Source of the DNA: a virus
Taxonomy: Duplodnaviria; Caudoviricetes
DNA: 50,565 nt
Direction: 5' to 3' (one strand)
IMG/VR virus record: IMGVR_UViG_3300018031_000008
Coordinates: 1 to 50,565 of that record
This document shows positions 1 through 33,499 of the stretch, piece after piece (the first letter of the stretch is position 1; each line of letters opens with the position of its first letter). The notes below the pieces were generated by a model that ran no database searches, was not told the origin of the DNA, and worked only from the letters and a program-made list of their open reading frames with translations. The translations under genes were made by a program, and so were the position numbers.

Positions 1-80
1 CCCCACAACATCCCCACTCCCATGACCGCGAAGGCCAACAGAATAATCGCCCCGAAAACAAAGACGATGCCCTTCACCAT
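1..80 (-). CDS. small membrane protein, partial (runs off window)
   Basis: ATG at 80 just after the SPFH stop; translates MVKGIVFVFGAIILLAFAVMGVGMLW..., a hydrophobic helix. Confidence 0.55.
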   Translation of the reverse strand, partial: MVKGIVFVFGAIILLAFAVMGVGMLW

Positions 81-81
81 G

Positions 82-837
82 TTACTTCCCCTTTTCGTCA
101 ATCGCGATAAAGGGCACCGCCGCCCCCGTCACACGCGGAAGCTCCCCGTTCCACTTCTCCAACGCCTTAAAGGTGAGAAGATCCTTCGTGAGAGATTCCC
201 GCACGAGGCGATTCGCGTCCGCCTGCCCCCGGGCCAAGGCAACAGTGCGCTCGGCCTCTTTGACCGCCTGCTGGCGCATAAACTCGGCCCGTTGCACATT
301 CTGTTCTTGGATCTGTTTCTGTTCAATAGCGGCACTAAATTCTTTGGAGAACTCAATGTTTGTCAGTGCCACGTCGTGCACGTCAATCTCATACTGGGAC
401 AACCGGACACGCAGCCCCTCCAAGATCGTCGCCTTGAGTTTGGGGCGATCCTGAATAATTTTTTCCACGGGGAACAACGCGGACGAGGCTTTGGCCACCT
501 CTTCAATGGCGGGGGTGACTACACGATGCACAAAATCTCTCCCGACATTCTGGATGATCACGTGACACTTGTTGGGGGAGATCGCATAGTTCACCACCAA
601 GGTCATCTGAACATCCTGCAGGTCACGACTGGCTCCTCCTGTCCTCACCTCGTGCCGCTGCACCTTGGCATCAATCTCATACATATCCGAGGTGAGGGGG
701 TTGTACCAATACAACCCTTCAGTGTAGCACGTCTGATCCACCTTGCCGAAATAGGCAAAGACGGCGCGTTCGCCAGGATCCACTTGCCCACACGCCGTGA
801 GGAGGAAAAGTAGAGACACAAGTGTCATGCGTTTCAT
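82..837 (-). CDS. SPFH/prohibitin (band 7) domain protein, possibly lipoprotein
   Basis: EGLYWYNP, SRDLQDV, IEFSKEFSAAIEQKQ, ARGQADAN and EKWNGELP motifs; start MKRMT with AGGAG RBS and ATGA overlap with upstream stop; lipobox-like LTAC. Confidence 0.9.
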   Translation of the reverse strand: MKRMTLVSLLFLLTACGQVDPGERAVFAYFGKVDQTCYTEGLYWYNPLTSDMYEIDAKVQRHEVRTGGASRDLQDVQMTLVVNYAISPNKCHVIIQNVGRDFVHRVVTPAIEEVAKASSALFPVEKIIQDRPKLKATILEGLRVRLSQYEIDVHDVALTNIEFSKEFSAAIEQKQIQEQNVQRAEFMRQQAVKEAERTVALARGQADANRLVRESLTKDLLTFKALEKWNGELPRVTGAAVPFIAIDEKGK

Positions 838-1478
838 GGGGCACTCCTTTCTGGGAGCATGCACGGTTGAGAGAAACTGGTGCCCAATTCAGAAACCACG
901 GAGGTCGTTGTGGGTCGCAGCCTTTTTTCCCACCGCTGTTTGGGGGCAAGACTTTGATCCGGAGGGCGCTGTCGCACGGTATTCGACCAACTGGCAGAAG
1001 GTCTGTCTATACAGCGTGTGGGCACCCACCCCGCCGCCCGATAAATTGTTCCCGTATGGACCTCCGTATCTTGATAACTCACCAGCATAACGACGTGAGG
1101 ATACAGCGTGCGTATTCGTCGTGTCATGACCCCCAACATCCAACTGGGTGTGTACCGAGGTGCGTCTGGAGCGACCGCCAAACGGCGCAACTCCAGCCAT
1201 TCCTGTTGCGGGAGATGTCGGGCGACAGGATGATCCCAAATAGCTACCGCATAGAGTATATTATCCCCTTCCGCCCCGAAGCACAAATCGGATCTGATAA
1301 AGGGGCTGTCTATTCGGGGCAATCGAGAATGCCACAGCTGGTTCAACGCTCGTGCTTTATCATTGGGAATCTGTACCACGCGCATCTCGAGCGGCGAGGT
1401 CGGACTCGAACCGCCCTCCCCCTCCCTGGAAAAGAAAGGGTACATCACCCGGATGCTTTCGCCGCCTAACACAGCCAT
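834..1478 (-). CDS. mom: Mom-like GNAT-fold DNA adenine modification protein
   Basis: WHSRLP, AVAIWDHPVAR, LELRRLAV, LVSYQDTEVHTGTIYRAAGW motifs typical of Mom-family proteins; ATG at 1478 with AAGGA RBS, alternative start at 1385. Confidence 0.8.
   Translation of the reverse strand: MAVLGGESIRVMYPFFSREGEGGSSPTSPLEMRVVQIPNDKARALNQLWHSRLPRIDSPFIRSDLCFGAEGDNILYAVAIWDHPVARHLPQQEWLELRRLAVAPDAPRYTPSWMLGVMTRRIRTLYPHVVMLVSYQDTEVHTGTIYRAAGWVPTRCIDRPSASWSNTVRQRPPDQSLAPKQRWEKRLRPTTTSVVSELGTSFSQPCMLPERSAP
1387..1465 (-). tRNA. tRNA-Gly(TCC)-like cloverleaf embedded in the mom 5' coding sequence, non-canonical
   Basis: Acceptor stem GCGGCGA/TCGCCGC (7 bp), D stem GCAT/ATGT, elongated anticodon stem with TT-TCC-AG loop, GGTTCGAGTCC T loop, discriminator T; ends TCGA rather than TCCA. 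Confidence 0.65.
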
Positions 1479-1512
1479 GCTTTTTTCCTTTTGAGCGGGC
1501 GCAAGTATCTCG

Positions 1513-3045
1513 TCAGAGAATCGTGAATCCTTGGCTCCTGTAGTCCGCAAAGCGCTGCTGCGCATGCCGGGCGAGGTAATCCTTGGGGTCCTCAAGATCA
1601 TACCCGTCTTCGACATCGTAAATGAGCACCTCGTGCTTATCGGGGCGAGGGCGCAACGCTCGCCCCACCCGCTGAAGGGTTCTCACACTGGACTCCCCTG
1701 CCCCCGCCAGGATGAGTACGTCAATCTCCGGGAGATCTATGCCCTCATCGAGAATTGTGGACGCGAGGAGAAGGGCTCCTCCCCCCCAACACTGAAAATC
1801 CTCAATCGCTCTTTGCCGCACGGCGTCCGATTCCGACCCATGAATCCACCAACAGGCGGGCAGGACCTTTGTGCACTCGGCAAACAGGATCTCCCCGTGA
1901 GCGAGAGCAGAACAGAGGAGGAGCACCTTCTCTCCGCGCTGCACGTGCCCCCAGGCCGTGCGAAATAGTTGGGTGTTCCGGGCGGTGTTGTAGACAATTC
2001 CTCGACGATAGGCCTCCGCGAAGAGTTTGCCCCCGAGCGTGGACAACTGACGCGGGTTGCGTCGCCAGGTGGGGCAGACCATCTCTCGCACTGTGGAATA
2101 CGCGGGATAGGAATGCTGGGGCGCCCGCAGACGGACAATCGTGGGGGTGGCGAGAAAACCTTGCTGAGAGAGCTCCTGAATGTCCGCTACCATGCACACG
2201 GGTCCTGTAATACCCTCCAGTCGGAGATTCCGAATATGGTCAGATGTGAGCGGTGTCGCGGACAGACCAAACCGATAATACGCCTGTGTGCACCAATTTG
2301 CCACAGTTCGCCAGGTGTCCGCAGAGGCGTGCATGCACTCATCTATCACGAGGCACTTCCACTCTGCCCAGAAATTTCTCATGTCCCCGAGCCCCGCATT
2401 TTTGCGAGGGTCAAGACGTACCAAGGTCTGGACCATGCCCACTGTGACAGGATACTTTGTCAGAATGCCCGCCCCGATCATGCCTACAGGCATGCCCAAA
2501 CGCTCCACGAGACGCTGGTGAGTTTGATGAAGCAGTTCTTTGCGATGGATCATCCACAAGGTGGGCACCCCTAACTGACGAACGACGTCGCCGCCTACTT
2601 CCGTTTTCCCCCCTCCCGTGGGCATCTGGATCACACAGCGATAGCGAGCCAACGCCTCCGATACCGCAGCGACCTGGTAGGGGCGCAATGTGAGGGGAAG
2701 AGCCTTTCTCTGAGGAGAATTCTCTGGAGGGTTCTGCCACAGGTGGGGGCCATAGGGCGTGCACGACGGGGGAGGCGCTTTGTCTTTCACCGCAACGGTG
2801 TATCCTTTGGCGGAGAGAAGATCCACCAACCGAGGAGTGAGTCCTGCGGCACACACCAGGGAATATTGCCCTCGCGCCGCAAAGAGGCGTATATGCCCAT
2901 CCCACCGCCCACTTTTGTACAAAGTGGTGTATTGCGCCCGAGGCGCGGGGAGTGTGAGAGCCTCCGTCAGCAGGGTGTAGGCCCCCTTCTCCTCACAGGT
3001 GATAGAGGCGTAGAGGATATCTTGCACAATGCGTACGGTGGACAT
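1513..3045 (-). CDS. superfamily 2 DEAD/DEAH-box helicase (UvsW/ResIII-like)
   Basis: LRPYQ Q-motif, MPTGGGKT Walker A, DECMH, GLSATP, ILDEGIDLP, QRVGRALR. Confidence 0.93.
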   Translation of the reverse strand: MSTVRIVQDILYASITCEEKGAYTLLTEALTLPAPRAQYTTLYKSGRWDGHIRLFAARGQYSLVCAAGLTPRLVDLLSAKGYTVAVKDKAPPPSCTPYGPHLWQNPPENSPQRKALPLTLRPYQVAAVSEALARYRCVIQMPTGGGKTEVGGDVVRQLGVPTLWMIHRKELLHQTHQRLVERLGMPVGMIGAGILTKYPVTVGMVQTLVRLDPRKNAGLGDMRNFWAEWKCLVIDECMHASADTWRTVANWCTQAYYRFGLSATPLTSDHIRNLRLEGITGPVCMVADIQELSQQGFLATPTIVRLRAPQHSYPAYSTVREMVCPTWRRNPRQLSTLGGKLFAEAYRRGIVYNTARNTQLFRTAWGHVQRGEKVLLLCSALAHGEILFAECTKVLPACWWIHGSESDAVRQRAIEDFQCWGGGALLLASTILDEGIDLPEIDVLILAGAGESSVRTLQRVGRALRPRPDKHEVLIYDVEDGYDLEDPKDYLARHAQQRFADYRSQGFTIL

Positions 3046-3126
3046 GCTCTCTTCCCTAATCCCCCCCTAGGGGGGGTTTCGAAACCTGAAGGGCTCTGTG
3101 GACTTGGCTCAGGGGGTCACCTTGCC

Positions 3127-3339
3127 TCAGAACCCGTGTGGATGGGGATGCACGTTTGTCGTGTAGCAAGTTGTCTTCACGGACCACTTCGTGTTCGTGG
3201 TCCGGTAACACACCACCCGGGGTCGGTGATCGTGATAGGATCCCCGCCCCGCGCACCCACCCAACAGAAGGGCCACCCCCACAAATAATAGCGCCCCGAG
3301 CAGGGCGCCAAGAAGTTGTCGGAGACGTAACGTCCTCAT
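3127..3339 (-). CDS. small putative lipoprotein
   Basis: Hydrophobic N-terminus ending LLGGC; overlaps upstream stop; GGAGG RBS. Confidence 0.55.
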   Translation of the reverse strand: MRTLRLRQLLGALLGALLFVGVALLLGGCAGRGSYHDHRPRVVCYRTTNTKWSVKTTCYTTNVHPHPHGF

Positions 3340-3584
3340 TGTCCTCCCTCTTGTTTCCGTGTCTCCTCTCGCATAGTGTCTTGGGCCACCAGGCCCACAT
3401 ACAAGGCTCCCGTCTCCTTCGGGGCTTCCGTCTTCGGAGTCATGGTTCGCAGAGAGTCCTCGACGACCCGGAGGGAGGTCTCCAGGTGCATGAGAAGGGT
3501 GTGGAGGGTGATCACGTCGCTCTGGAGCTCATCCACCGCGCAAAGAGTGCGTGTGAGGATCGTGTGAAACCTGTCGCTGTCCAT
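3336..3584 (-). CDS. hypothetical protein (coiled coil)
   Basis: AAGGAGG RBS; coupled to downstream gene. Confidence 0.65.
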   Translation of the reverse strand: MDSDRFHTILTRTLCAVDELQSDVITLHTLLMHLETSLRVVEDSLRTMTPKTEAPKETGALYVGLVAQDTMREETRKQEGGQ

Positions 3585-3604
3585 GGTGTCCCCTCCTTGT
3601 GGGT

Positions 3605-3641
3605 GAGAGAGAAGAGGGGGGTAGGCTGCCCCACCCCCCTC
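3605..3641 (-). terminator. probable intrinsic terminator
   Basis: Minus strand GAGGGGGGTGGG-GCAG-CCTACCCCCCTC hairpin followed by TTCTCTCTC. Confidence 0.6.
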
Positions 3642-3654
3642 GTGGGGTCCTCCG

Positions 3655-3810
3655 TTACGGCTTGCACTGCTTCGTGTAGCAGTCGTTCACGAGATGCGGG
3701 GCGACCGCCGTCTGCACCCCCGAGAAGATCTTCGCGACGTCCGTCTCCCCGGTGAACAGGCTGCCGGCACCGAGGGTCGCCGCCACTGCAATAATCGCCA
3801 ATGCGATCAT
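3655..3810 (-). CDS. 51-aa hydrophobic small protein (not in ORF track)
   Basis: MIALAIIAVAATLGAGSLFTGETDVAKIFSGVQTAVAPHLVNDCYTKQCKP; AGAAGGAG RBS; terminator directly downstream. Confidence 0.7.
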   Translation of the reverse strand: MIALAIIAVAATLGAGSLFTGETDVAKIFSGVQTAVAPHLVNDCYTKQCKP

Positions 3811-3824
3811 GTCTGTCTCCTTCT

Positions 3825-3948
3825 ACCGAACAGCCCCCGCCCAGGACGGTGGCCCTGAGAGGGGGCTGTTCTCGCGGGAGTCGTGAGACTCCCACTGTTG
3901 AGTGATCCGTGCCACCGCACGGTCGGCTCGAACACTGAGACGAGTATA
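3825..3948 (-). promoter_or_regulatory. -10 box and structured 5' leader
   Basis: TATACT at 3943-3948 with no good -35; three hairpins CCGTGC/GCACGG, GGGAGTC/GACTCCC, GAACAGCCCCC/GGGGGCTGTTC. Confidence 0.5.
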
Positions 3949-3995
3949 CGCCACTCTGAGAAATTCTTTGGCGAGCTCAATCCCCTCTGGATTGA

Positions 3996-4508
3996 TCATG
4001 GCCCTCTCTCTTTCTTCTTTATTTTACAATACTCTTCCCAGCCGTTTTGGCGAATAAAGAGACAATGAGTGATCACAGTTTGGTGCATTGCCCCTGTGCA
4101 ATCATGATCTGTTGCCTTCACAATCGCCTCGCTGAGGGCTTTGGCATCGGCATTTTCTTCGTGAATGACCCCATAAATGTTTTCGTATCCTTGAAATTGG
4201 GGGTCAGCACTAGGGTGAGCATCTAACCACTCGACGCCTGCGGCGAGCATGTTCCGGCACGTTTGCTCATATCCTCCACCAAACCCGCTGATTTCATCCA
4301 TGTCGTCTGTGAACTGATATTTGGATTGCCGCACGAGGATTTCTGGGGGTTCTTGAATGCGCTGTGTTTGATGCCACAACGCGAAACAACCAGGACAAAG
4401 AGGTTGTCCGAGAGCATTGACCAAGGATTCAACATCGGCGGGGATATCCACATCATTTCCGCATCGAGCACATCGGAAAGTCCTGGAACTTTTTTCCTCC
4501 GCCATCAT
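3996..4508 (-). CDS. hypothetical protein with N-terminal zinc ribbon
   Basis: CARC...CPGC then DEISGFGGGYEQTCRNM domain; AGGAGG RBS. Confidence 0.75.
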   Translation of the reverse strand: MMAEEKSSRTFRCARCGNDVDIPADVESLVNALGQPLCPGCFALWHQTQRIQEPPEILVRQSKYQFTDDMDEISGFGGGYEQTCRNMLAAGVEWLDAHPSADPQFQGYENIYGVIHEENADAKALSEAIVKATDHDCTGAMHQTVITHCLFIRQNGWEEYCKIKKKERGP

Positions 4509-4675
4509 CCCCTCCTTATCGCAAAAGGGTTGACATGGTCTAATGTGGCCCCGCAGAATTTACATATATACGAATCTTTAGACTCTTTCCCTGTCACCAT
4601 GAGATAGGCCACTTCACATATCCCGCAGCGCATCAGCTGGAGCATTTCAGGTAATGGAGAGAGTGATTCGTTCAC
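4505..4675 (-). CDS. 56-aa zinc-ribbon protein (not in ORF track)
   Basis: GTGA and ATGA overlaps at both ends; CGIC...CKFC. Confidence 0.6.
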   Translation of the reverse strand: MNESLSPLPEMLQLMRCGICEVAYLMVTGKESKDSYICKFCGATLDHVNPFAIRRG

Positions 4676-4911
4676 TCAATGACCTTTAATCCAAGACAGT
4701 ATATCAGCTCTTCGGAGGAAACATGATACACATACAACATGCACCCCGAACTTCCACTTCCCTCTTTGTTATGGCCCCAGCTATCAGTGACATCGGCAAT
4801 AAAGCCGCTGTGGTTCACGCTGCCAATACCCTCCACTTTCTTAAAGTGTTCTCGGCGTATGCTATCACTTATCTCCACACGTTCTTCCGTCATGTGCGGC
4901 TTTGTTTTCAT
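4672..4911 (-). CDS. hypothetical protein
   Basis: AAGGAGG RBS; operon context. Confidence 0.6.
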   Translation of the reverse strand: MKTKPHMTEERVEISDSIRREHFKKVEGIGSVNHSGFIADVTDSWGHNKEGSGSSGCMLYVYHVSSEELIYCLGLKVIE

Positions 4912-4956
4912 TGTCCCCTCCTTTTCCAGGTTGATTCGAGAACGTTTCGTTTCTTG

Positions 4957-5076
4957 TTACGGAATCCTGATGGGTGGAATTCCTGTGCCTGTCGGGAGGA
5001 GCACCAGCCAGACAATTACCGCCGCGGGAATCAGGATCACATTCAGGAAAAAGAGGATGTCTTCGCTTATCGTCAT
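4957..5076 (-). CDS. 39-aa membrane peptide
   Basis: MTISEDILFFLNVILIPAAVIVWLVLL...; ATGA overlap with upstream stop. Confidence 0.45.
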   Translation of the reverse strand: MTISEDILFFLNVILIPAAVIVWLVLLPTGTGIPPIRIP

Positions 5077-21130: not shown

Positions 21131-24007
21131 TTAGGCGTACCTCCCTGTAAAGGGACTCACCGCACTTTTGGCTTGGGCGTCCAAGGAGCGGATCCAGGCC
21201 TCCACAGAGGAAAAGCGTCCCCGTCGGGCTTCCCCCGGAGCGGCGCCTGTCCCCGGCGCGGCCCCCAGAGACCAGACCGCCTCAAACCCTCGCCCGAGAA
21301 TAGCGAGCGCCTCGGAATAGTAATCGAGGCCATCTCGGGCATATAGGCTAGTATCCGCCAAAAATTCCTTTTCGTAAAGAGTTATTGCGTCCTCGCAATA
21401 TTTGACAACCTCGGGGGTCATCTGCCCCTTGTTACGTTCCAACTCGTACCGCGCGAGGTGAAGGAGATCGCGAATCCACAAAAACTTCCCCAGGGTGCGT
21501 TCGGGATACTTCCGCCGATCCGCAATCATGAGGCCAATGTTCCGTTGGAACTTCACCCGCCGTCCTTCTTCCACAAGGTACCCATCATGGGCGATGTCCA
21601 CGTCGGAAAGCACAATCGCGGGCACGACACTTTCGTTCAGAGCAGTTTCCGGATGCTCATGCACCTTCCCGAAGAAGCGTATCCCCTTACCATTGCGAAA
21701 GACCCGAATAGGAAGATCCGGCTTGAACGCATTGGGGGGGGAAGCACTAAAATGATGTTGCCGAATAGCGTACCCATTAAAACAATTGCGCCGTATGTAC
21801 TTCTCGAGGTTGGGTGCGCGGAGCAACTCTTCATCGGCATCGATCCAGATGATCCAGTCCCCTGTCGCTTCTTTGATCGAGATATTCCGCACCCCCTCAA
21901 ATCCCCAGGGTTCATGATCCGTGGAGGAGAAGTGGGCGGATTCCAATTCTTTTTCACAGGTGAGACAGTACAAGGGAGAGGGGGAGTCCAGGACCCGAGC
22001 CCCCAGACTTATAGCGAATTCCCGCGTGCGATCTGTTGAGCTACAGTCGGCCACAATAATTTCTGCGGCGAGAGGGCGAATACTGCGCAAGGCGCGAATA
22101 AGCAGCGCTTCTGCATTCTTTGTAATGATGCACGCGGAGACTGTTTGCTTGCTGGGCCGATATTTCGTCTTGGCCATCTGCGGGGCTGCCACGCTTCGCC
22201 ACAGATCCTCCCACAGGGGGCGCCAATACTTGGTCAAGACGGTAGACCAAGGAAGAGCCACAGAGGGGTCCACAATCATTTTCGCCCGCTCTTCCCGCTG
22301 CCAGGGGGAGGATTGCAGGGCGTGTACCAGTTGGGTCACAAAGTTCTGCGGAGAAGTTTTCCGCCCGTATCGCACGGTCTCCTGCAACGCCATAGTGGGG
22401 ACCACCACAGGGACAGCCCCCAATCTTTGTGCTTTGACAGCAGTCAGGCAAAACCGCTCTCCACCCGTACAAGGATAGACCCACACCGCTGCGGTGAGGA
22501 AGGGGGACAGGTCCCCCCCTGTGGTCCGGGGATGCACAACAATGCCCGGCTGGTCCATCTTGCCCACCATCAGGGTTTTCCACGTCACGGCCTCCGCATT
22601 CCCCGCTGTCAACCGATCGAAAAGATCCCATCCATACCACACATGGAGTTCGGCCTGGGTCACTTGTCGGCGGATGTCTCCCCACTTGTCCAGCAGGAAC
22701 TCTAACCCCCGATCGAACGACGAGGCATACACCATATGCGCAGGATTTCTGTCTAAGAGAACAGAAGTCTCCCAATACAGGGCGGGCAATCCGAGGGGAA
22801 TCGCCACGATTTTCTCTGGAGACACCCCCGGATTCAACGAGAGAATCTCCCGTCGGTGCCATTCGGAGAGAGCGATAATCTTGTGGAGGCGAGCTACCCG
22901 TTCAGGGGTCAACATGGAGGGATCACAGGGATCTGCTGTCCAAAACAGCAGACGTTTCGTGTTTACGGGCACATCGAGAAAGCACTTCATAGAGATGCAC
23001 ACGTCGCGAGCCTCGTCCGGGTTGAAGGCGTTGTGCGGGGCATAGTGCACTCGCGCAGGGGAGACCCATTCCCCAGAAACCTCTGCGGGGGGATTATAGT
23101 ACACCTCCGTCTCGTGTCCCTGCTGGGCCAACGTCTCCGCAAATTCCACCACCGCCTCTTCGCTCCCTCCGTAACTTTTCGAGTCTTGTGGGTTCCAGCC
23201 CCCCGCAACAGGATTAACCATAAAGGTGATCTTGGGCCGCCGGTACCAGAGAATCTGTTCTCGATGCGATGCGGGTTGAAGAATCACGTGCCCCCCCACC
23301 ACACGATCGCCAATCGCCGCCCGTAACTCCTCCTCATTCAGACACCGCACATGCTCACGCGCTTCATGTTCATTCTCGTAGTGGGGCACAGCGGTCGCGG
23401 GGGTAGTGATGTAGATCCACCCCCCAGGAGCCAGGCGCCGTTCCGCCGCACGGAGCAGGGCGACAGGGTCAGGGACATGCTCCAGGAGTTCCATAATCAA
23501 GATGGCATCCACCAATTCCGTGAGTCCAGGTTGTGAGGGATCCTGGCTCTCCGCAAAATCATTGACAAACTCACACGACAAGCCAAGCATCTGTGCGCTA
23601 TTCTGCGCATGTGCGAGAGCCGTTGCATCCAGGTCCACCCCAATCCCTCGAGCTTTGTAGGCCAAGCACAAGTGTAACAGGGCGAACCCATCGAAGCACC
23701 CCAGATCGAGAATGGTCTGTGGGGGATGCTCGGCCATCGCCGCTCGGACCTGGGCAAGACGCGGAATTCGTTGGTCCATCGTCGGAATACTCTGCGCGGG
23801 CACAAAAGTCCCGCGATGCGCCGTATAAAAGTCCCGATAGGCTTCGGGGGAGGCCAGGTGAGCAACCCACTCCTGAATCTTCTGCCGTGCTCTCTTTCCC
23901 GCCTCCTCCTCGTGGTGCGCGGCACAATACTCTTCGATCAACCGTTGGGCATCCAGAGCCCGATCTTGCCACAGCAGAGCCACAATGCTTTCAGGCGTGT
24001 GTGCCAT
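21131..24007 (-). CDS. tri-domain SAM methyltransferase + GT-B (GT4-like) + GT-A (GT2) protein
   Basis: ILDLGCFDG and ELLEHVPDP (MTase); YGGSEEA, YASSFDRGL, ERFCLTAVKAQ (GT4-like); VSACIITKN, WIDADE, FFGKVHE, IAHDGY (GT2). Confidence 0.9.
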   Translation of the reverse strand: MAHTPESIVALLWQDRALDAQRLIEEYCAAHHEEEAGKRARQKIQEWVAHLASPEAYRDFYTAHRGTFVPAQSIPTMDQRIPRLAQVRAAMAEHPPQTILDLGCFDGFALLHLCLAYKARGIGVDLDATALAHAQNSAQMLGLSCEFVNDFAESQDPSQPGLTELVDAILIMELLEHVPDPVALLRAAERRLAPGGWIYITTPATAVPHYENEHEAREHVRCLNEEELRAAIGDRVVGGHVILQPASHREQILWYRRPKITFMVNPVAGGWNPQDSKSYGGSEEAVVEFAETLAQQGHETEVYYNPPAEVSGEWVSPARVHYAPHNAFNPDEARDVCISMKCFLDVPVNTKRLLFWTADPCDPSMLTPERVARLHKIIALSEWHRREILSLNPGVSPEKIVAIPLGLPALYWETSVLLDRNPAHMVYASSFDRGLEFLLDKWGDIRRQVTQAELHVWYGWDLFDRLTAGNAEAVTWKTLMVGKMDQPGIVVHPRTTGGDLSPFLTAAVWVYPCTGGERFCLTAVKAQRLGAVPVVVPTMALQETVRYGRKTSPQNFVTQLVHALQSSPWQREERAKMIVDPSVALPWSTVLTKYWRPLWEDLWRSVAAPQMAKTKYRPSKQTVSACIITKNAEALLIRALRSIRPLAAEIIVADCSSTDRTREFAISLGARVLDSPSPLYCLTCEKELESAHFSSTDHEPWGFEGVRNISIKEATGDWIIWIDADEELLRAPNLEKYIRRNCFNGYAIRQHHFSASPPNAFKPDLPIRVFRNGKGIRFFGKVHEHPETALNESVVPAIVLSDVDIAHDGYLVEEGRRVKFQRNIGLMIADRRKYPERTLGKFLWIRDLLHLARYELERNKGQMTPEVVKYCEDAITLYEKEFLADTSLYARDGLDYYSEALAILGRGFEAVWSLGAAPGTGAAPGEARRGRFSSVEAWIRSLDAQAKSAVSPFTGRYA

Positions 24008-25100
24008 TCTCTCCTCCGATGGTGTCCACTATCTGTTCCCACTGCTCCGCAACGCCATCCCAGTCAAGCCCTTTCGCATGGAGCAGACCCGCCTGTGAGG
24101 CCCGAGTCCAGGCAGCCTCATCCCGCAACAAGTGGAGGCAGGCGTCCACAAATTTTTCCTGATAAACAGAGTCTGCCGCGCCTTTCCCCTCTTCCCAGGG
24201 GATAAGAACACCTGCGTCGGGGTGTAAGGTCTCCGGCAACGCGGCCAACTGCGACCCCACGAAAGGCAATCCACAGGCCATCGTTTCCATTGCACTGATA
24301 CACGAAATCTCCTCAAACGAAGAGGGGTAGATGTACAGTGCGGCGGTTTTGTACAGCTTATACAAATCCTTTTTGTTGAGGGCCCCCAGATGACGGACCC
24401 GCCCCCCAAAGTAATTGATGAGAGCATGACACTTCTCGTAGAGCGGGCGGAGTTGGTCTGTGTAATTGTCATACCCTCCCAGATACAGGCGAAGATCGGG
24501 ATCTTTTTGCAACAGACGCGGGAAAGTCTGTTCGAGGAGAATCTCCAACCCTCGTTCCGGGCGAGCCGTAAAGACAAGAGCCTTCCGATCGCGCACCGTG
24601 ACAGGGGGGGGCACGCTCGCAATCAACTCGAGATCTACGCCATTGCGCGTCACCGTGAAGGCGGCATCCGGCAAGCCATAGACTTCTTGATATTGCCGCT
24701 TCATAAACTCGGAGAGCACCAACAGGCGATCCACGCTCCACATAACACCACGAATGGGATCCCCATAGCGTTTGAGGGCCAAATCGTGCATCCACCAGAG
24801 GCGTACGCCTGAGAGCAGAGGAACAGTCAGAGGGTGGGGCACCCGCTGAATCACCGTCACATCGTGGGGGGTTTTCAACGCCCACTCCAAAAAGCGATCT
24901 ACCCGGATAAAGTGCACCCGATCATAAAAGAGACCTTCTTTGGGGCACCGGCAGAAGAGATACACTGTGTGCCCGCGCTTGGCTAAGGCCCGAGCGACAC
25001 AGAGACCTGCGGTCTCAGACCCTCCAACCGACTTCGTCTCGTAGACCTCGGGATCGAGGGGCATTCCTTCGACAAAAAACACCCAACTGAGAGGATCCAC
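23991..25100 (-). CDS. GT-B glycosyltransferase (GT4-like)
   Basis: VGGSETA, WMHD, RNGVD, TARPERGL, YPSSFEEISCISAME. Confidence 0.9.
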   Translation of the reverse strand: MDPLSWVFFVEGMPLDPEVYETKSVGGSETAGLCVARALAKRGHTVYLFCRCPKEGLFYDRVHFIRVDRFLEWALKTPHDVTVIQRVPHPLTVPLLSGVRLWWMHDLALKRYGDPIRGVMWSVDRLLVLSEFMKRQYQEVYGLPDAAFTVTRNGVDLELIASVPPPVTVRDRKALVFTARPERGLEILLEQTFPRLLQKDPDLRLYLGGYDNYTDQLRPLYEKCHALINYFGGRVRHLGALNKKDLYKLYKTAALYIYPSSFEEISCISAMETMACGLPFVGSQLAALPETLHPDAGVLIPWEEGKGAADSVYQEKFVDACLHLLRDEAAWTRASQAGLLHAKGLDWDGVAEQWEQIVDTIGGENGTHA

Positions 25101-25138
25101 AATACACTTTCAGGGCCACTGCGGGCACGGCGCGAAAA

Positions 25139-25258
25139 CTACATCCTATTCAGTTTAACCAGCAACATGCCAAAAGCGACGAATCCGGCCAACGACCAAA
25201 ACATGAGGCCAAAGGCCGTTGCGTACATTACCCATGGGGGAAACACCGGAGCGCACAT
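25139..25258 (-). CDS. 39-aa membrane peptide
   Basis: AAGGAG RBS; MCAPVFPPWVMYATAFGLMFWSLAGFVAFGMLLVKLNRM. Confidence 0.45.
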   Translation of the reverse strand: MCAPVFPPWVMYATAFGLMFWSLAGFVAFGMLLVKLNRM

Positions 25259-25272
25259 AGATTCTCCTTTCC

Positions 25273-26085
25273 TCAACCACTCGCAACCACCTGTCCGTGC
25301 TTCCATCCCCCTAAATCGGATTCCTTAAACTGAATATAGGCCTCCCGACTCACGGCTGGATGTCGCGCTAGCACCTCAGGATGATCTTTCCACTTCTCAC
25401 GGAACCGTTCACCGTCGCGCATCTCTACTTCAGTATCTTCCGCACTCGTGAAGCTGTCTCGCCTGCTCTGTTTATCGAGATGGCAGATAGGCAAATCTGC
25501 CACCCTGGCCGGCAGAAGGGTCGTGTCTTGTTGCTCACTCGCTTTCACAATGAGACGTTCCACATAATCCGTATCCCCAAAACAGACATAGAAACGGGGA
25601 TCAAACCACCCCACTTCTTCACGCAACCTCGGCCAATCCATGAGCACGCAAGCCCCGTTATACCCTGGGTGAAGAGGGAGAACTGTGGGGATCTTCGCTA
25701 AGTGAGGCAGGGCCGCTAAGCCCGTGACCACATCCGGACCCACAAAGGCTTGGCGCTTCTCCTGAAAAATACGCTGTAAGGCCGGCACCACTCCTGGCCC
25801 AAGGAGCACATCGGAAGTGAGCACGAGCACGCTCTCACTGCGGGAAAGAGCCAGCCCCCGATTCACCGAAGCCCACACCCCAATGTTTCTCTCGTGGACA
25901 ATCACCTGATGCCGCGCGAGGTTCTGGACATGGGCCAAGATTGGTCGTATCTCGGGGTCCGTCGAGCAATTGTCTAAGACCACGACGGAGGCAATCTCTT
26001 TCGAGAATCCAAAGGCCCAAAAAGAGGTGAGGGCCAGCCACAAGGACACAGGAGCATTCCTCACGGGCATAATGACATCTATCAT
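25273..26085 (-). CDS. GT2 glycosyltransferase
   Basis: IDVIMPVRN, VLDNCSTD, NRGL, LTSDV, VGWFDPRF...FGDTDY. Confidence 0.88.
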   Translation of the reverse strand: MIDVIMPVRNAPVSLWLALTSFWAFGFSKEIASVVVLDNCSTDPEIRPILAHVQNLARHQVIVHERNIGVWASVNRGLALSRSESVLVLTSDVLLGPGVVPALQRIFQEKRQAFVGPDVVTGLAALPHLAKIPTVLPLHPGYNGACVLMDWPRLREEVGWFDPRFYVCFGDTDYVERLIVKASEQQDTTLLPARVADLPICHLDKQSRRDSFTSAEDTEVEMRDGERFREKWKDHPEVLARHPAVSREAYIQFKESDLGGWKHGQVVASG

Positions 26086-26450
26086 GGGGGGTCTCCCTCC
26101 TTTATGGGGGGCTCGGGGAAGTTCGTCTCCAGAGCATAACCAGCCCCCCGCACCTCACTCAATTCGCCCATGAATGTCAATGGCCCTGACCCTTCAGGGA
26201 GCTGGAGAATCAAACGATCCGCGATCCCATAGACCACCCTCTGGAGGCGCTGTCGAGCCGCGAGATCCTTCTGCCCACTCGCGTTAAATTCGGCCCACAT
26301 CACAAGGATACGCAATTCGTGGATCGTGATCCTCACCGCCACTTTCTTGTCCAGGTCTGCGGGGATTCCCTCATCCCCACACTGGGGGCATGCCTTGAGT
26401 TCAGGATTAGGCTCGACTTCGTGAGAACAATGGAGACAGAGCCAACTCAT
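26082..26450 (-). CDS. hypothetical zinc-ribbon protein
   Basis: CLHC...CPQC; ATGA coupling on both sides. Confidence 0.65.
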   Translation of the reverse strand: MSWLCLHCSHEVEPNPELKACPQCGDEGIPADLDKKVAVRITIHELRILVMWAEFNASGQKDLAARQRLQRVVYGIADRLILQLPEGSGPLTFMGELSEVRGAGYALETNFPEPPIKEGDPP

Positions 26451-27259
26451 TGCAGCTTCCCTGGCTGTAGCAGGGTTCCCTCTGTGTCTTTTTCTTCGAC
26501 ACCGCTGGGGGGCACCCTCACATGCTGTTCCTCCGCAATCGCCTGCAGAATTTCTGTGGGAATCACTCCCAGCGCCATGTCGCCGTACTCGCCAATGAGA
26601 ATTTTCGCCTCATGGAGACGGGTCTGATCGTGGCGTTCTTTCTGGTAGTACGAGGAGGTCGCACCCCACCGCGCCCGATCCCCCTGCTCCCACGGAGGGA
26701 GATCGTCGCGCAGAAACGGTTCTTTCGTGTGTTGCACCATCGTGGTGCCACACAGGACGAGGCGCCACCCCGCCGCGCGACACTGCAGGGACATCGCGAC
26801 ATCGTCCAAGTAGGTAATCCGAGGGTCATAGTGCGGGCGCCACGCGAGAGAGTAGAGAATACAGAACCCGAAACACGTGACCATCTCCGCCGTTTTTCCG
26901 TGTACCAGAGCATCTTGCAGCGGGGTGAACCCATCCTTCGTTTCCATCGGATTGATCATTCCCACTTGATCAATGCTCCACGCAGTGGCCATAAGATCCC
27001 GCAACCATCCCGCAGACACGATAGTGGTGTCATCCTCCAATATCACAACGTGACTGTATCCGCGTTGCTCGGCCCACGTAAAGACTCGTTGGCGCTTTTC
27101 TCCTCGCGGGAGAGCGGGACTGACCTCTAAGCGAAGGGCGAAAGACATCCCCGCATCCACCGTTCGCAGAGATTCGAGGCATCGCTTCAGTAAAGGATTG
27201 CTCTCTTCCCCGTGGCGAGAAGCAATGCCCACCGCGACACCCCCCCGCTCCCGTGTCAC
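26447..27259 (-). CDS. GT-A fold glycosyltransferase (GT2-like)
   Basis: VILEDDT DxD-type motif, GWLRDL, GFCILY, YLDDVAMSLQCRAAGW. Confidence 0.75.
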   Translation of the reverse strand: MTRERGGVAVGIASRHGEESNPLLKRCLESLRTVDAGMSFALRLEVSPALPRGEKRQRVFTWAEQRGYSHVVILEDDTTIVSAGWLRDLMATAWSIDQVGMINPMETKDGFTPLQDALVHGKTAEMVTCFGFCILYSLAWRPHYDPRITYLDDVAMSLQCRAAGWRLVLCGTTMVQHTKEPFLRDDLPPWEQGDRARWGATSSYYQKERHDQTRLHEAKILIGEYGDMALGVIPTEILQAIAEEQHVRVPPSGVEEKDTEGTLLQPGKLQ

Positions 27260-27486
27260 AGCTGCAACCTCACTGTCGCAGGGAAATTCTCAAAGGTCAG
27301 CTTCTCCTTGCAGTCGTCACAGAGGAGTCGGTTGTGACCAGAGTGCTGTATATCGTTGAAGTAGATCACCAGCCACCCCTCGGGAATCGCCGCATATCGT
27401 AAAGGGGAAAGAATATCTTGAGAATAGGTGTGGTTATCCTCTTTCCCACAGCCGTCGCACCGACAAACGATGTGATGCGTAATCAT
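27256..27486 (-). CDS. small zinc-finger protein
   Basis: CDGCG...PEGW...LCDDC; GGAGG RBS. Confidence 0.65.
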   Translation of the reverse strand: MITHHIVCRCDGCGKEDNHTYSQDILSPLRYAAIPEGWLVIYFNDIQHSGHNRLLCDDCKEKLTFENFPATVRLQL

Positions 27487-27507
27487 ACAGTACCCTCCAT
27501 CGTCGAA

Positions 27508-27681
27508 TCAGAGTGCTGTATATCCATGCCGATCACAGCGCAACACCCCCTCCGTTAATGTCCACCCCTCCAAGAGGTGAGGAACAGGCCCAGCACTAGG
27601 CAGTACTCCGGTGTATTCGTACTTCTCACTTTTCTGGATTCCGCACTCGTCACACGCGTAGGTGACACGCAATTCGATCAC
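27508..27681 (-). CDS. small zinc-finger protein similar to 27256-27486 (not in ORF track)
   Basis: MIELRVTYACDECG...LEGW...LRCDRH; GTGA overlap with upstream stop. Confidence 0.55.
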   Translation of the reverse strand: MIELRVTYACDECGIQKSEKYEYTGVLPSAGPVPHLLEGWTLTEGVLRCDRHGYTAL

Positions 27682-27893
27682 AGATCCTCCGCTTTTAATT
27701 CCCCCGTACCTTTAAGCTCTCCGAATCCTTTAGCTAGATCTCGCGCAAAACCTGTCTGCAGGAATACCTCTTCTATTGTTAGTCCTAACTGCCCGCACGC
27801 CAAGCACCTCTTACAAGTAGGACAAGTATTAGGATACCAACAGCAGGTACAAATACCCGATTTTGTCCCTCCGCAATCGTTGCAGTTTATCAT
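27678..27893 (-). CDS. small Cys-rich protein
   Basis: Multiple CxxC; coupled to neighbours. Confidence 0.55.
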   Translation of the reverse strand: MINCNDCGGTKSGICTCCWYPNTCPTCKRCLACGQLGLTIEEVFLQTGFARDLAKGFGELKGTGELKAEDL

Positions 27894-28129
27894 GACCCAT
27901 GTTCATCCACACGCTCCCACGCGAGGGGAGAATAAAACATAAGGCATTCCCCGCCCAAATAAGGTATGGTAACTTTCCGTGTAAAATAGTATTCCCCTTG
28001 CTCGTCCACAAACTTTTCCCCCTCAGTAAGCCCCCACTCACAACACAACGTGGGCACACGTTGAACAACTCTGTATGTTGCTCCCACCTCTACGCGAGCA
28101 ATCACACGGTGCCCATCGTCGCGGGGCAT
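27890..28129 (-). CDS. hypothetical protein
   Basis: Fills operon gap; start uncertain. Confidence 0.5.
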   Translation of the reverse strand: MPRDDGHRVIARVEVGATYRVVQRVPTLCCEWGLTEGEKFVDEQGEYYFTRKVTIPYLGGECLMFYSPLAWERVDEHGS

Positions 28130-28890
28130 ACATGCCCTTGCATGATAGGAGTGGTCGGATGTGTTTCCCTATACCCACACTTTGGGCAGATCATGGGGTA
28201 GATCATCTCAAAAGACTCCACGTCTTCAGGTGTTCCGAGACTCTTGAACTCGTCCACGTTCACCGCCTTCACTTTCGCCCCGTACCGTTCGATCACTTCG
28301 TTGTATGTCGGCGCAAGGTAGAACTCCCCCCTGATCCGGTGATTCTGTGCGATAAGGATACAGCACGCGTCCACGAGATCCTGAGCATGCCGCCACCAGT
28401 AAAATCCCACAGTAGCCTTAACGGATATGGGCTTCTTCTCGGCAACTTCTGTGATCCACCCATCCACTTCTCGTACATAGCTCCACCGATCCCCCTCGCC
28501 CCGGAATGTGAGGACATATCCATCCCATTTTTCCTTCAGCGCCTGTTCCTGCAACGCCTCCAAATCATGACGGAACCACTGATCGGCGTTCATCACGGCC
28601 ACTGGCTCCCCCGGGGGCAATGCGAGAGCAGCGGCCAAGACAGTGCACGCAGCGCCCTGGGTGGGGCCCCAGAGGAAAAACGAGAAAAGGTTGCGTTTAT
28701 TCCCAATAGGGCCACATCCGTGTATTTCGTTGCTGTTGAGCACCAGGTGAATATTCCACTCGGGGGGTATAGGATCAAGAGCCCACTCGATCATGTGTCT
28801 GCCCCCGATCTTGATAAGTGGCTTGGGCACAGTATACCCCGCCTCCTTAAACCGCCTGCCGGCACCCGCCATAGGAACGATGAGGTGCAT
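28102..28890 (-). CDS. sugar-phosphate/phospho-substrate nucleotidyltransferase (NTP_transferase family)
   Basis: IVPMAGAGRRF..AGY..PKPLI, TQGAACTVL, NADQ, VAEKKPIS, GEFYLAPTYN, LGTPED. Confidence 0.9.
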   Translation of the reverse strand: MHLIVPMAGAGRRFKEAGYTVPKPLIKIGGRHMIEWALDPIPPEWNIHLVLNSNEIHGCGPIGNKRNLFSFFLWGPTQGAACTVLAAALALPPGEPVAVMNADQWFRHDLEALQEQALKEKWDGYVLTFRGEGDRWSYVREVDGWITEVAEKKPISVKATVGFYWWRHAQDLVDACCILIAQNHRIRGEFYLAPTYNEVIERYGAKVKAVNVDEFKSLGTPEDVESFEMIYPMICPKCGYRETHPTTPIMQGHVCPATMGTV

Positions 28891-28936
28891 TGTCATTCCT
28901 CCTCGTCTCGTTGGCATGTTTCACAAACTTTGCGCA

Positions 28937-29398
28937 TTAGGTCTGCTCCACGAGCTTTGCCCGCCCCTTCTGCTCTGCCTGTGCAAAACATTCGGGGCAG
29001 AGGGCATAGCCTGTTTTTGTGCTGATGTACGCCTCCCCAGCATTAAAGATCTTCTCACAGAGCACATTCGAACAGACGGTCGTGGGGGGTTCAGCACAAA
29101 GTAAAGGACTCTCATTTGCGTGCTGGACCGTGAAAGGAACGTCTCGGCGAATGTTCAATTCGAGAACATGAAAGAGATATCCTAGCGGATCCGGAGACTC
29201 CACTATTTCGTGATACGGAATAGTAACGAGTTTATAGTATACCCGATTCGACGCATCGCACCGAAACACCATGGTAAGGAGAACCACCTTGTGGTTTTCA
29301 TCAAAGCACTGGGAAAACCCTATGATGTCGGGGTAGAGATGTTGAAGGCGGGCAAACATCTCCTCTATCGCAAGTCTGGGAAAGGGAAAGGTCACCAT
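28937..29398 (-). CDS. hypothetical protein with C-terminal zinc finger
   Basis: CSNVLC...CPEC; overlaps HAD stop. Confidence 0.6.
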   Translation of the reverse strand: MVTFPFPRLAIEEMFARLQHLYPDIIGFSQCFDENHKVVLLTMVFRCDASNRVYYKLVTIPYHEIVESPDPLGYLFHVLELNIRRDVPFTVQHANESPLLCAEPPTTVCSNVLCEKIFNAGEAYISTKTGYALCPECFAQAEQKGRAKLVEQT

Positions 29399-30063
29399 GA
29401 GACAATCTCCACGTGAGAATGCTCGCCCACCGCCCTGTGGATTCTCGGGAGGAGAGCGAGGGTCACCTCCTCAGGCCCCGCGACAGAGACTAGCCGGCAC
29501 CTCGCTGCCAACGCCGAGGCCTTCCCTGGCTCGGAGTCCTCGACAACGACAAGATCGCACGGAGAAATTTGAAAACGCATCGCCGCCTCCAGGTACATCC
29601 CTGGATCCGGCTTTGGGGGGGCGTCTTCGTTGGAAAGATAGAATTCGGTGAAGTCCAACAATCCCGAGAAGAGCAGCATCATTCGCACGGACTCTCGCAC
29701 CGCATTGGAGCAGACGGCGATCCTCCATCCCGTCACTTTCAACTCCGAGAGGAGATCACACTTGCCCTTCTCGGGGCGTAATTCTTTGATGGCCTCAACC
29801 GTATAGTGCTGCTTTATGGAGGCCAAGTACTGCACGGTGTCTCCCAGAACTCTTCCGCGATTGGGGATTCGCCCTTGATCCAGAAGCATCCTCAATTTTA
29901 CTCGTGTGGGTAACCCTTTGAACACCGTATGATGCTCCTCGGGAGTAATCGTCGCATGCGGGCCATACCCTTGGAGGGCGTCGTTAAGCGCCTGAAAGTG
30001 CAAAAAATCACAATCACACAGGACCCCGTCAAGGTCGAAAGCAATGTATTTCTGATCTTTCAC
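29392..30063 (-). CDS. HAD-superfamily phosphatase (beta-PGM-like)
   Basis: FDLDGVL, VCSNA, PKPDPGMY, VEDSEPG. Confidence 0.9.
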   Translation of the reverse strand: MKDQKYIAFDLDGVLCDCDFLHFQALNDALQGYGPHATITPEEHHTVFKGLPTRVKLRMLLDQGRIPNRGRVLGDTVQYLASIKQHYTVEAIKELRPEKGKCDLLSELKVTGWRIAVCSNAVRESVRMMLLFSGLLDFTEFYLSNEDAPPKPDPGMYLEAAMRFQISPCDLVVVEDSEPGKASALAARCRLVSVAGPEEVTLALLPRIHRAVGEHSHVEIVSW

Positions 30064-30407
30064 GCCCCCTCCCCCCGTGGCACAACGTGAAGAGGGGTCT
30101 CCTCCGGGATGCCCGCTGAGGCATACGTGGCCAGGAGAGAGTTATCCAACAGGACATGCTCACGATCAATATGAAAGTCCGCGACCAGACGGCCCACGGG
30201 ATAGCGTTGGTCAATCCATTTCTTGTAGGCATACACGTCGGGCATATGGGCCCGCACAATGGCATCTATCTGACTCACCGTATTCATGTCGTGAAAAAAG
30301 GCGTAGATGGTGACAATGGTCCCCCGAGGAATGAGGAGATCGGAGACTACTGCTCCAGAGGACTCTTTCCTTTTCTGCCACTTACGGAGTAGGGAAAACA
30401 GCCACAT
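30060..30407 (-). CDS. hypothetical protein
   Basis: GTGA coupling with HAD; likely start MWLFS. Confidence 0.55.
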   Translation of the reverse strand: MWLFSLLRKWQKRKESSGAVVSDLLIPRGTIVTIYAFFHDMNTVSQIDAIVRAHMPDVYAYKKWIDQRYPVGRLVADFHIDREHVLLDNSLLATYASAGIPEETPLHVVPRGEGA

Positions 30408-30409
30408 GG

Positions 30410-30733
30410 TTACCCCCGCACTGCAGACACTTTTTCGTTCCGCTTCTCCGCGAGTTCCATCAGGGTCACCGGTCTGACAACACAGTCGCAGCACAAAAAC
30501 ACTTCCTCCATGAGTTCTTTGTGATCCTCCTCGTCCATGGCAACCGCCACCGCGTCCACAGTGGGAGCAAAGACCTCGGCGAGGGCGAGGGATCCCCCCC
30601 AACACTGTGTCAAACCCAACACCTGGTTAGTGGCCTGTGGCTTAAACACGGCGATGGAGAATCTCGCCACATAGAACGCTGGGGCAATTCTCCCCCCACA
30701 GGCATCGCAGGGGCGTATCTCCGATAGCTTCAT
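30410..30733 (-). CDS. hypothetical zinc-binding protein
   Basis: CDAC...CCDC; AAGGAG RBS. Confidence 0.65.
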   Translation of the reverse strand: MKLSEIRPCDACGGRIAPAFYVARFSIAVFKPQATNQVLGLTQCWGGSLALAEVFAPTVDAVAVAMDEEDHKELMEEVFLCCDCVVRPVTLMELAEKRNEKVSAVRG

Positions 30734-30817
30734 AGGGTCTCCTTATTTTTCCCCACTCACACAAAATCTCCACTCGTTGCATCCAGGAGAAAGGGCGATT
30801 GCCAAGTAAGGGAGCGC

Positions 30818-31258
30818 TTACGACTCTTCGGCATTCGTCGCCTTCTCCGCCCGTTCCTGTTCCTTCTCCCACTCCTCGAGTCTGTTCAGCTCTATTCTGC
30901 GGAGTGTGGCCTCTAACTCTTCGCGTTGCTGGACAGTCGCCGCCACAATGCGTACAGACTCCACATCCTCAGGTCGGAACATCTCCGTGAAAGGTGCGCG
31001 TCTCGGTGTGAGGCGCGAGGTTACCCCCCAGGGACCTGTGTGCACGATCACGTGCATTCGTCGGTGCATCCAGGGGACAACATAGTGGTAGAAAAAGTAT
31101 TCCGCTTCGTCGTAGCGGGGGAGAAAGAGCACTGCGCCCAACCTTCCCCGTCGCTGCAGATAGAGGGCGAACCGATTGTTCGCAAAGGCGGCCTTCTCCT
31201 GTCGCCGCCGTCGGTGTGTATCGTACCGTGTCAAAATCCAATCTATCACTGAGGACAT
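30818..31258 (-). CDS. hypothetical protein
   Basis: AAGGAG RBS; C-terminal coiled coil. Confidence 0.6.
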   Translation of the reverse strand: MSSVIDWILTRYDTHRRRRQEKAAFANNRFALYLQRRGRLGAVLFLPRYDEAEYFFYHYVVPWMHRRMHVIVHTGPWGVTSRLTPRRAPFTEMFRPEDVESVRIVAATVQQREELEATLRRIELNRLEEWEKEQERAEKATNAEES

Positions 31259-31481
31259 AGCAATTCTCCTTTATCTACCCGTTCTCCTTCGGTAGGAGTT
31301 CCCTCCCTCTCAAATGCCCTATTTCCCAGGGGATTCTACTCTCCCCATCAAATTCTCTGGGATAGCCACTGCCCATTGATGCACACCCAAAACTGCCGCC
31401 AACAGGCGCATCCAGGGAGGTGGTGTGCGAAACAGTACGCGATCTGTAGGAGAAGGCCCGATGGCCCAGTGATTATCTTAA

Positions 31482-33377: not shown

Positions 33378-33387
33378 GGCTCTCTTC

Positions 33388-33479: not shown

Positions 33480-33499
33480 AAGGGCAAGAGCATCTGTGA

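Follow-up and report, generated by a model that had tools for sequence, protein, structure and literature searches.

A tRNA-Gly-like RNA within the reading frame of a mom gene

The first codons of a Mom-family gene in the window (the whole 50,565-nt stretch of DNA analysed here, a linear virus record, ~60% complete, with tailed-phage head and tail genes) also spell a tRNA-Gly-like RNA, and comparison with its relatives indicates that this feature is real and dual-coding, a variant of a dedicated, non-ribosomal tRNA-Gly. We consider it probable that the RNA is excised and serves as Mom's own glycine donor. It covers codons 5–31 of the gene, nucleotides +14 to +92, with tRNA nucleotide 1 at +14 (Table 1). 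An earlier note on this DNA had proposed a tRNA-Gly-like cloverleaf in the N-terminal codons of a Mom-like gene, and this was borne out: ARAGORN, a check named in the note, made a single tRNA call in the whole 50,565 bases, tRNA-Gly(TCC) at 1465–1389 on the minus strand, and a covariance model of the relatives scored 1465–1387 at 71 bits (relatives score up to 94). The geometry had to be partly redrawn. The extent of 1478–1383 shrinks to 1465–1387, and the proposed 6-bp T stem and 1-nt variable loop give way to a stem of 5 bp, bulged by an A at 1400, and a variable loop of 4 nt, according to the parse of the relatives and the Rfam alignment. The long anticodon stem is present in the window as described, but reflects a local in-frame insertion of 3 nt, which occurs in 7 of 106 loci against a norm of 6 bp with a 6-nt loop; the CGA 3' end is likewise correct here but rare (2 of 106 relatives, whilst CCA is encoded in 75 and absent in 31).

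In an Rfam cmscan of window positions 1–5000 there was no match at E ≤ 1 and the gathering score was not reached, and folding of the RNA region by itself did not stand out from that of shuffled sequences (z −1.02, matched by 32 of 200), so that the proof of the RNA has to be comparative, via its relatives. The window copy is among the more deformed members of the family (A8, C14, G21, the CGA end and three additional nucleotides) and could be decaying. The TCC triplet is nevertheless retained, although the insertion has shifted its codon position relative to the relatives. Several features of a decoding tRNA-Gly are lacking, as the anticodon arm is 21 nt long, the T stem carries a bulged A, and A8/C14 stand in place of U8-A14, whilst the GlyRS set G1-C72, C2-G71, U73, C35 and C36 is present in full. 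With a 3' end of CGA, CCA would have to be added. Promoter and terminator scans returned two weak promoter-like and six terminator-like sites; one of the latter, a weak hairpin with a T-run, lies inside the RNA (1450–1438, minus strand), overlapping the D stem and the anticodon arm, and there may be an alternative fold at 1438–1450.

Table 1 Features of the mom region of the window.
Feature	Position	Strand	Basis
Mom-family GNAT gene, 214 aa	834..1478	-	PF25680, PHROG 1384, AlphaFold2, fold match
Likely true start codon	1476..1478	-	homolog extensions, parser counts, SD-like enrichment
Shine-Dalgarno-like AAGGA, 7 nt before ATG 1478	1486..1490	-	sequence
tRNA-Gly-like RNA, 79 nt	1387..1465	-	ARAGORN, family model (71 bits), parser
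Acceptor stem	1465-1459 with 1397-1391	-	
D arm	1456-1442	-	
Anticodon arm	1440-1420	-	
TCC (Gly) triplet in enlarged anticodon arm	1428..1430	-	sequence, ARAGORN, parser
Variable loop	1419-1416	-	
T arm	1415-1398	-	
Bulged A in T stem, family hallmark	1400..1400	-	A in 105 of 106 relatives; insertion relative to Rfam RF00005
U73	1390	-	
CGA	1389-1387	-	
In-frame ATG directly behind the RNA, not favoured as start	1383..1385	-	not conserved, SD-like motif absent
R99 and S112 codons; these residues align with the catalytic R111 and S124 of Mu Mom	1143..1184	-	alignment to 8bv8
UvsW-like helicase gene, upstream, same strand, ends 35 nt before mom start	1513..3045	-	

The Mom-family protein

The window protein matched Pfam PF25680 (49.5 bits against a cut-off of 27.1, E 5.5e-13) and PHROG 1384 (E 6.4e-19), and the best structural match of its AlphaFold2 model was Mu Mom (8bv8_B; Z 16.6, rmsd 3.0, 155 residues aligned), the second-best fold match reaching Z 14.7. 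Residues R99, S112, D137 and Y146 align with R111, S124, D149 and Y159 of Mu Mom (alignments with E 0.088 and E 2.8e-4), the first two of these in Mu Mom being catalytic residues (PMC13219725, available text). Across 85 homologs R99 is invariant and S112 at least 90% conserved, and all four active-site equivalents are conserved. The position of Mu R151 is occupied by E139, beside a gap in a weak alignment (E 0.088), and the HTH-like insertion (Mu 175–209) is absent in the window model, where no helix lies between strands 152–157 and 180–186; according to the available text of PMC13219725, Mu Mom needs both the insertion and R151. As there is neither a clear R151 match nor an HTH-like insertion in the model, we treat Mom activity of the window protein as predicted, and file it in the Pfam Mom family on the strength of the profile and fold matches, outside the Mu subgroup.

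The GNAT fold starts near residue 32 of the model and residues 1–29 are predicted to be disordered (pLDDT <50). Such disorder is in keeping with residues whose sequence has been shaped chiefly by the RNA, and over these residues AlphaFold2 gives no backing to a role for the RNA-coded part as a peptide; in Mu Mom the unstructured 11–19 region matters for activity (PMC13219725, available text). Searches of cultured phages and plasmids returned no close relative of the window protein, only 31 Paenibacillus phage records and one plasmid at 30–34% identity, with the N-terminus uncovered in all. The UvsW-like helicase is not a conserved partner of mom. Elsewhere in the window, glycosyltransferase, methyltransferase, NTP-transferase and HAD genes lie between the capsid and tail genes (21131–34566), possibly a virion glycosylation block.

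A conserved RNA family upstream of the Mom core

A protein search with the 183 residues downstream of the RNA found 939 relatives. We fetched 205 loci, among them the best 80 of 199 and the best 80 of 477 in rankings that took the extended protein as reference. Adding the window made 206, of which 197 possessed the anchor plus 220 nt of upstream sequence; at <90% identity, 136 of these were distinct. A frame-free parser found a good cloverleaf in 106 of these 136 protein-found loci (a sample that includes the best 80 of 199 and the best 80 of 477), and as the other 30 have none, the RNA is dispensable. The note's observation that bacterial GlyRS identity elements are present extends to the family, 104–106 of the 106 relatives keeping them (G1-C72 in 106, C2-G71 in 104, G3-C70 in 105, U73 in 105); the published set consists of G1-C72, the second pair, U73, C35 and C36 (PMC7826273, available text). 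The anticodon loop contains CC in all 106, and TTCC in 97. All 106 parsed relatives also possess the T-stem bulge, and in the T stem G49-C65 is present in 99 and C51-G63 in 96. The anticodon arm is 18 nt long in 90 of 106 and consists of 6 bp and a 6-nt loop in 89; in seven relatives the anticodon stem has 5 bp, its loop 7 nt and the D loop 8 nt. When eight relatives were submitted to Rfam RF00005, five reached the threshold (29 bits), and the bulge was placed as an insertion in the three alignments shown. Position 74 falls in a Leu codon, and in every one of 151 such codons it is C or T, never A or G, whilst elsewhere in these genes CTA/CTG make up 506 of 1105 Leu codons; this bias points to selection on the mature 3' end.

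The covariation alignment contained 123 of the 151 distinct 76-nt copies and a window row placed four bases off (one row among 124, present in the covariance model as well), with 16 copies of shifted D/anticodon register and 12 near-duplicates omitted. In it, 98.2% of the cells pair and 19 of 22 pairs change on both sides, the outcome that the earlier note's covariation check had looked for among aligned relatives. None of 500 shuffles matched the family pairing, and slid controls paired at 40–51%. Relatedness can inflate covariation scores, and we therefore tested synonymous sites in 97 full-length protein-found loci. The pair 5:68, both sides of which are third-codon positions, is paired in 95 of the 97. 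Entropy at four-fold sites averaged 0.99 bits over the 13 columns of the RNA and 1.89 bits over the 41 columns of the core (p 1.4e-7, in protein-found loci only), and where a Phe codon spans the anticodon it is always TTC (91 of 91 cases; 169 of 382 elsewhere). In these alignments both the RNA fold and the reading frame are shown to be under selection.

Placement at 3' ends, as free copies and without a D arm

A scan with the 3' half of the RNA gave at least 120 loci (~330 estimated), 90 of them distinct among the matches listed. Although the pattern fixed the T arm and CCA and left the GCG start and loop CC free, all 90 start with GCG, which the parser favoured, and carry CC in the anticodon loop. 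Among the matches listed, the RNA lies in frame at the 5' end of mom in 50 of the 90 and at its 3' end in 27, with one copy just upstream of mom, one weak antisense match and 11 loci without a match. The last group comprises four loci that end a mom-like tail, one with an opposite-strand tail, four with short flanks and two (L397, L411) without mom in at least 760 nt upstream; a same-strand mom gene thus adjoins the RNA in 82 of the 90 loci (among the matches listed). In 22 of the 27 3'-type loci the gene reads through the whole RNA, in four it stops inside and in one (L400) the RNA is free, so that in 26 of 27 the stop codon is reached only within the RNA or past it (among the matches listed). 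The mom genes of 3' type are of the Mu clade (L338, L339, L344, L349, L352 and 22 more among the matches listed). Position 34 varies in the 3'-type copies, and 15 of the 40 loci of other than 5' type have 65-nt forms without a D arm (both among the matches listed). ARAGORN calls two of 28 loci of 3' or free type (among the matches listed), hence annotation misses these RNAs.

Searching cultured phages by blastn with two family RNAs gave, both times, a weak match to Psychrobacter phage vB_PmaS_Y8A, and once two tRNA-Cys matches. Y8A (OQ059336; L336:987-1054, 1059-1127) carries two unannotated, tandem, free copies behind its mom gene, which end in CCA and have the T-stem bulge and a reduced D arm; the first copy lies 7 nt past the stop codon of mom, a gene annotated as hypothetical (Pfam E 1.8e-55). 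At nine cultured-phage mom loci, Mu included, the RNA was absent within 0.6–1.2 kb (best score 7.5 bits), and six of nine genome-assembly matches, which include Bacteroidota, Planctomycetota and Opitutaceae, have it. In a FastTree phylogeny of 180 core domains, from which the RNA-coded part was excluded, the window protein falls in a different clade from Mu Mom, and RNA-bearing rows occur on either side of the deepest split, as 24 of 32 rows on one and 119 of 148 on the other. Sixteen changes of the RNA label are needed on this tree, eight of them forced by strong branches, and repeated loss of the RNA is likely; the tree is midpoint-rooted only, without a true root, and therefore we do not claim that the RNA is ancestral. 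No recurrent neighbour family, defence families included, was found among 110 flanking ORFs from 64 loci.

A probable glycine donor for Mom

The proposal of a dedicated, non-ribosomal glycyl-donor tRNA, made in the earlier note together with a stem geometry that was partly wrong, is the best supported of the readings, through the covariation, the GlyRS identity bases, the three placements with mom and the published chemistry of Mom. That Gly-tRNA-Gly is the donor, which the note had put forward, is published for Mu Mom: adenine N6 receives its glycine from Gly-tRNA-Gly, and any of the three E. coli isoacceptors will serve (PMC13219725, Silva 2026, available text). In the pathway we propose, RNase P would cut at nucleotide 1, the 3' end would be trimmed by the host's tRNA-processing nucleases, and a host enzyme would complete the CCA where it is unencoded, as in the window. 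Host GlyRS would then charge the excised RNA, which the T-stem bulge and the odd anticodon loop would keep off EF-Tu and the ribosome and thereby free for Mom, as a private glycine donor for the adenine modification that disguises the phage DNA. The bulge and the odd anticodon loops argue against decoding. EF-Tu withholds ordinary Gly-tRNA from FmhB, and the donors that serve in staphylococci are tRNAs with an altered T arm (PMC7826273, available text). Where the staphylococcal donors have weak A-U pairs, the T stem of the mom RNA has strong G-C pairs, so that EF-Tu evasion would depend solely on the bulged A, which we suggest weakens the binding. Against the donor reading stand the ability of Mu Mom to work with host tRNA-Gly, the nine cultured-phage loci without the RNA nearby, the 30 of 136 loci without a good cloverleaf and the 31 of 106 without CCA, as well as the deformities of the window copy and the missing HTH-like insertion and unclear R151 match of the window enzyme.

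At nearly every locus the RNA overlaps either the start region or the stop codon of mom, so that excision would inactivate the message, and translation and donor production would compete. Such competition would supply each enzyme with a large number of donors and limit the amount of a toxic protein. It is plausible, though somewhat less likely than not and open to more doubt than the donor function by itself, that a non-ribosomal tRNA-Gly in the enzyme's frame at either end also works as a switch, each transcript being either translated or cut into a glycine donor with the loss of its start codon (5' type) or stop codon (3' type). With the same reserve, one sequence could serve at once as protein code, as a chargeable tRNA and as a dosage switch, and the 65-nt forms lacking a D arm could be minimal aminoacyl carriers. 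The overlap is not universal, which counts against the main reading: in L186 (817-892) and L351 (1001-1079) an in-frame TAA lies in the T stem and in the anticodon loop of the RNA, respectively, with an in-frame ATG downstream, four loci (L005, L037, L212, L263) have no upstream start and an ATG in the D loop, and the copies in L400 and Y8A are free-standing.

The E. coli thrS leader is a tRNA mimic that controls its own mRNA, and we consider it unlikely, though deserving of attention, that the mom RNA does the same, remaining in the mRNA as a cis-acting mimic that blocks initiation or binds Mom or GlyRS, with no donor role. An ATG or GTG lies up to six codons upstream of the RNA in 136 of 163 pooled loci, and in 129 of these 136 nucleotide 1 falls at +5 to +14 from that start (both among the matches listed), within reach of an initiating ribosome. 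Control of this kind would suit the loci that lack CCA, and a protein whose overexpression is lethal and whose gene is tightly controlled in Mu (PMC7261163, available text). Yet an RNA at the 3' end, as in 27 of 90 loci (among the matches listed), or free and in tandem, as in Y8A, is unable to cover the start, and the uniform C or T at position 74 of the 151 Leu codons speaks for selection acting on a mature 3' end. An excised RNA might also be a decoy for host tRNA-cutting defence nucleases, or a reserve that spares host tRNA-Gly from the Mom drain. The rebuilt anticodon loop and variable position 34 of the 3'-type copies (among the matches listed) would suit such a role, as would the ability of Mom to use host tRNA-Gly (PMC13219725, available text), but a decoy need not track mom, whereas 82 of 90 loci adjoin a same-strand mom gene (among the matches listed), and the 110 flanking ORFs share no defence or other partner family, which leaves it very unlikely.

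Evidence that the RNA is translated as the start of Mom

The earlier note had left open whether translation starts at 1478 or 1385, and homolog extensions, frame counts and SD-like enrichment favour 1478. If the RNA were a separate upstream gene and Mom started at 1385, the dual coding would be an artefact of gene calling; the late start of the GNAT fold, near residue 32, the predicted disorder of residues 1–29 and the three of 120 top homologs called from the 1385 position are in line with that, and an ATG, GTG or TTG occurs within four codons from nucleotide 75 in 33 of 106 relatives. Of these 33, however, 23 are TTG, and only six of the 106 relatives have an ATG there. In-frame starts up to six codons upstream occur in 90 of 106 (28 and 19 in the other frames), upstream in-frame ATGs in 90 against 16 and 20, and an in-frame stop in one against 88 and 75, counts that are not independent events as the loci share ancestry. 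All 106 cloverleaves lie in the mom frame and their lengths vary by threes (spans of 72 nt in 97, 75 nt in seven and 69 nt in two). Amongst the best 120 of 939 homologs found by the query without the extension, 117 reach upstream of the 1385 position, 103 of them by 27–32 residues, and nearly all of these 103 carry the peptide spelled by the cloverleaf.

On account of the shared ancestry, and of a ranking that favours open frames, we scanned viral contigs by the RNA pattern alone, which gave at least 120 loci, 87 distinct among the matches listed. All 87 RNAs are open in the mom frame and 80 match the Mom core in frame; the rest are five scoreless, truncated loci (four Mom-like by eye), one with a frameshift in the core and one fused to another Mom-like ORF (all among the matches listed). 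An SD-like motif precedes the start in 52 of the 136 pooled loci with an upstream ATG or GTG, against 7–13 in five shifted windows (among the matches listed), and lineages without the fold retain an in-frame LF...PxS peptide. In view of these results we regard an artefact of gene calling as highly improbable. Least credible of all is an ordinary decoding tRNA-Gly or an attP remnant that overlaps the gene by chance: ARAGORN's Gly(TCC) call, the five of eight relatives that reach the Rfam tRNA threshold and the 5-bp stem with a 7-nt loop in seven of 106 would suit a decoding tRNA, but the bulge is universal, the loops are mostly of 6 nt, D-armless forms exist, the whole fold covaries rather than copying a host 3' half, and no integrase family was found among the 110 flanking ORFs or the 27 window ORFs scanned of a genome that is ~60% complete.

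Relation to known systems

The embedding of such an RNA in mom is already known, as far as the available text of one study goes (McMurdie 2011, PMC3146451), without a role. That text describes a 76-bp tRNA-Gly-like 'pseudo-tRNA' lying within the initial 150 bp of a mom homolog from the ssrA islands of Dehalococcoides, conserved in 16 modules and a deep-sea fosmid and with a DCC-type anticodon; it gives the element no function and calls Mom a methylation protein. The window RNA (79 nt, or 76 + 3, at +14 to +92, with TCC) resembles this element, the two being matched by description, whilst the bulge, the selection on the frame, the spread across phages and the 3'-end and D-armless forms belong to the present family and go unmentioned in the available text of PMC3146451. 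To the published element our analysis adds the forms that overlap the stop codon, the D-armless forms and a carrier in a cultured phage (Y8A).

Mu Mom (Silva 2026, PMC13219725; 8bv8) has in common with the window protein the Pfam family, the fold and the equivalents of R111/S124/D149/Y159, but uses host tRNAs and has no RNA near mom, whereas the window protein belongs to another clade and is without the HTH-like insertion or a clear R151. The available text of PMC13219725 and its two searchable supplements make no mention of an encoded tRNA. The closest parallel in function is Staphylococcus NP1-NP3, donors for FmhB/FemA/FemB, in which GlyRS identity is likewise retained, the T arm altered and glycine passed to a GNAT-fold transferase off the ribosome (Rietmeyer, PMC7826273, available text). 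NP1-NP3 weaken EF-Tu binding through A49-U65 and A51-U63, whereas the mom RNA has a G-C-rich, bulged T stem and lies in the enzyme's frame. The mom RNA has neither of the staphylococcal A-U pairs, so that it may work like NP1-NP3 but is not a member of that group.

The NP tRNA-Gly of Staphylococcus are ordinary, separate chromosomal genes. In the thrS leader and in mitochondrial tRNA punctuation a tRNA shape in an mRNA controls or cuts that mRNA from outside the coding sequence; the mom RNA differs in being wholly coding, and its excision would break the gene rather than mature it. No literature was found that links such an RNA to the donor of Mom or describes 3'-end or D-armless forms, in searches of sources that left subscription journals mostly uncovered. 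A 2025 review of dual-function RNAs (PMC12612679) had, in its searchable text, one unrelated match to 'tRNA', and the available text of PMC7824862 and bioRxiv 2026.09.15.751708 does not mention a mom-embedded RNA.

If the mom RNA is a glycine donor, it would explain how a DNA-modifying enzyme is supplied with Gly-tRNA without contesting the host pool with EF-Tu, a competition shown for Fem transferases (PMC7826273) and only touched on for Mom (PMC13219725) in the available texts. It would also give a function to the Dehalococcoides curiosity of 2011, mark many uncultured Mom homologs as likely users of Gly-tRNA, provide natural GlyRS-type and probably ribosome-orthogonal tRNAs, some of them D-armless, and amount to gene control via the excision of a tRNA from a coding sequence. 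The cultured Psychrobacter phage Y8A and cultured Dehalococcoides make the donor idea testable now.

Multiple, displaced and remnant copies

Several loci departed from the common arrangement of one RNA with one mom gene. L134 carries copies at 1999-2071, 2638-2710 and 4132-4202, within 2.2 kb, one of which heads the first mom gene and one of which lies inside the second Mom ORF (2550-3200). L045 carries two mom paralogs separated by 2.7 kb; the RNA lies in frame in one (215-290) and is absent from the other (2857-3561). L137 combines a broken first copy (421-496), a short ORF that contains a second Gly-type cloverleaf, and a mom gene with a decayed remnant only. The copy at L411:961-1029 lies between cytosine methylase-like and terminase-like ORFs (by eye), with mom not found within ~1 kb. 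Finally, the RNA at L223:1201-1276 is nearly identical to that of L166 and is fused in frame to a different Mom-like ORF, whilst the tail of the original gene remains in another frame, an arrangement that looks like gene replacement under a retained leader.
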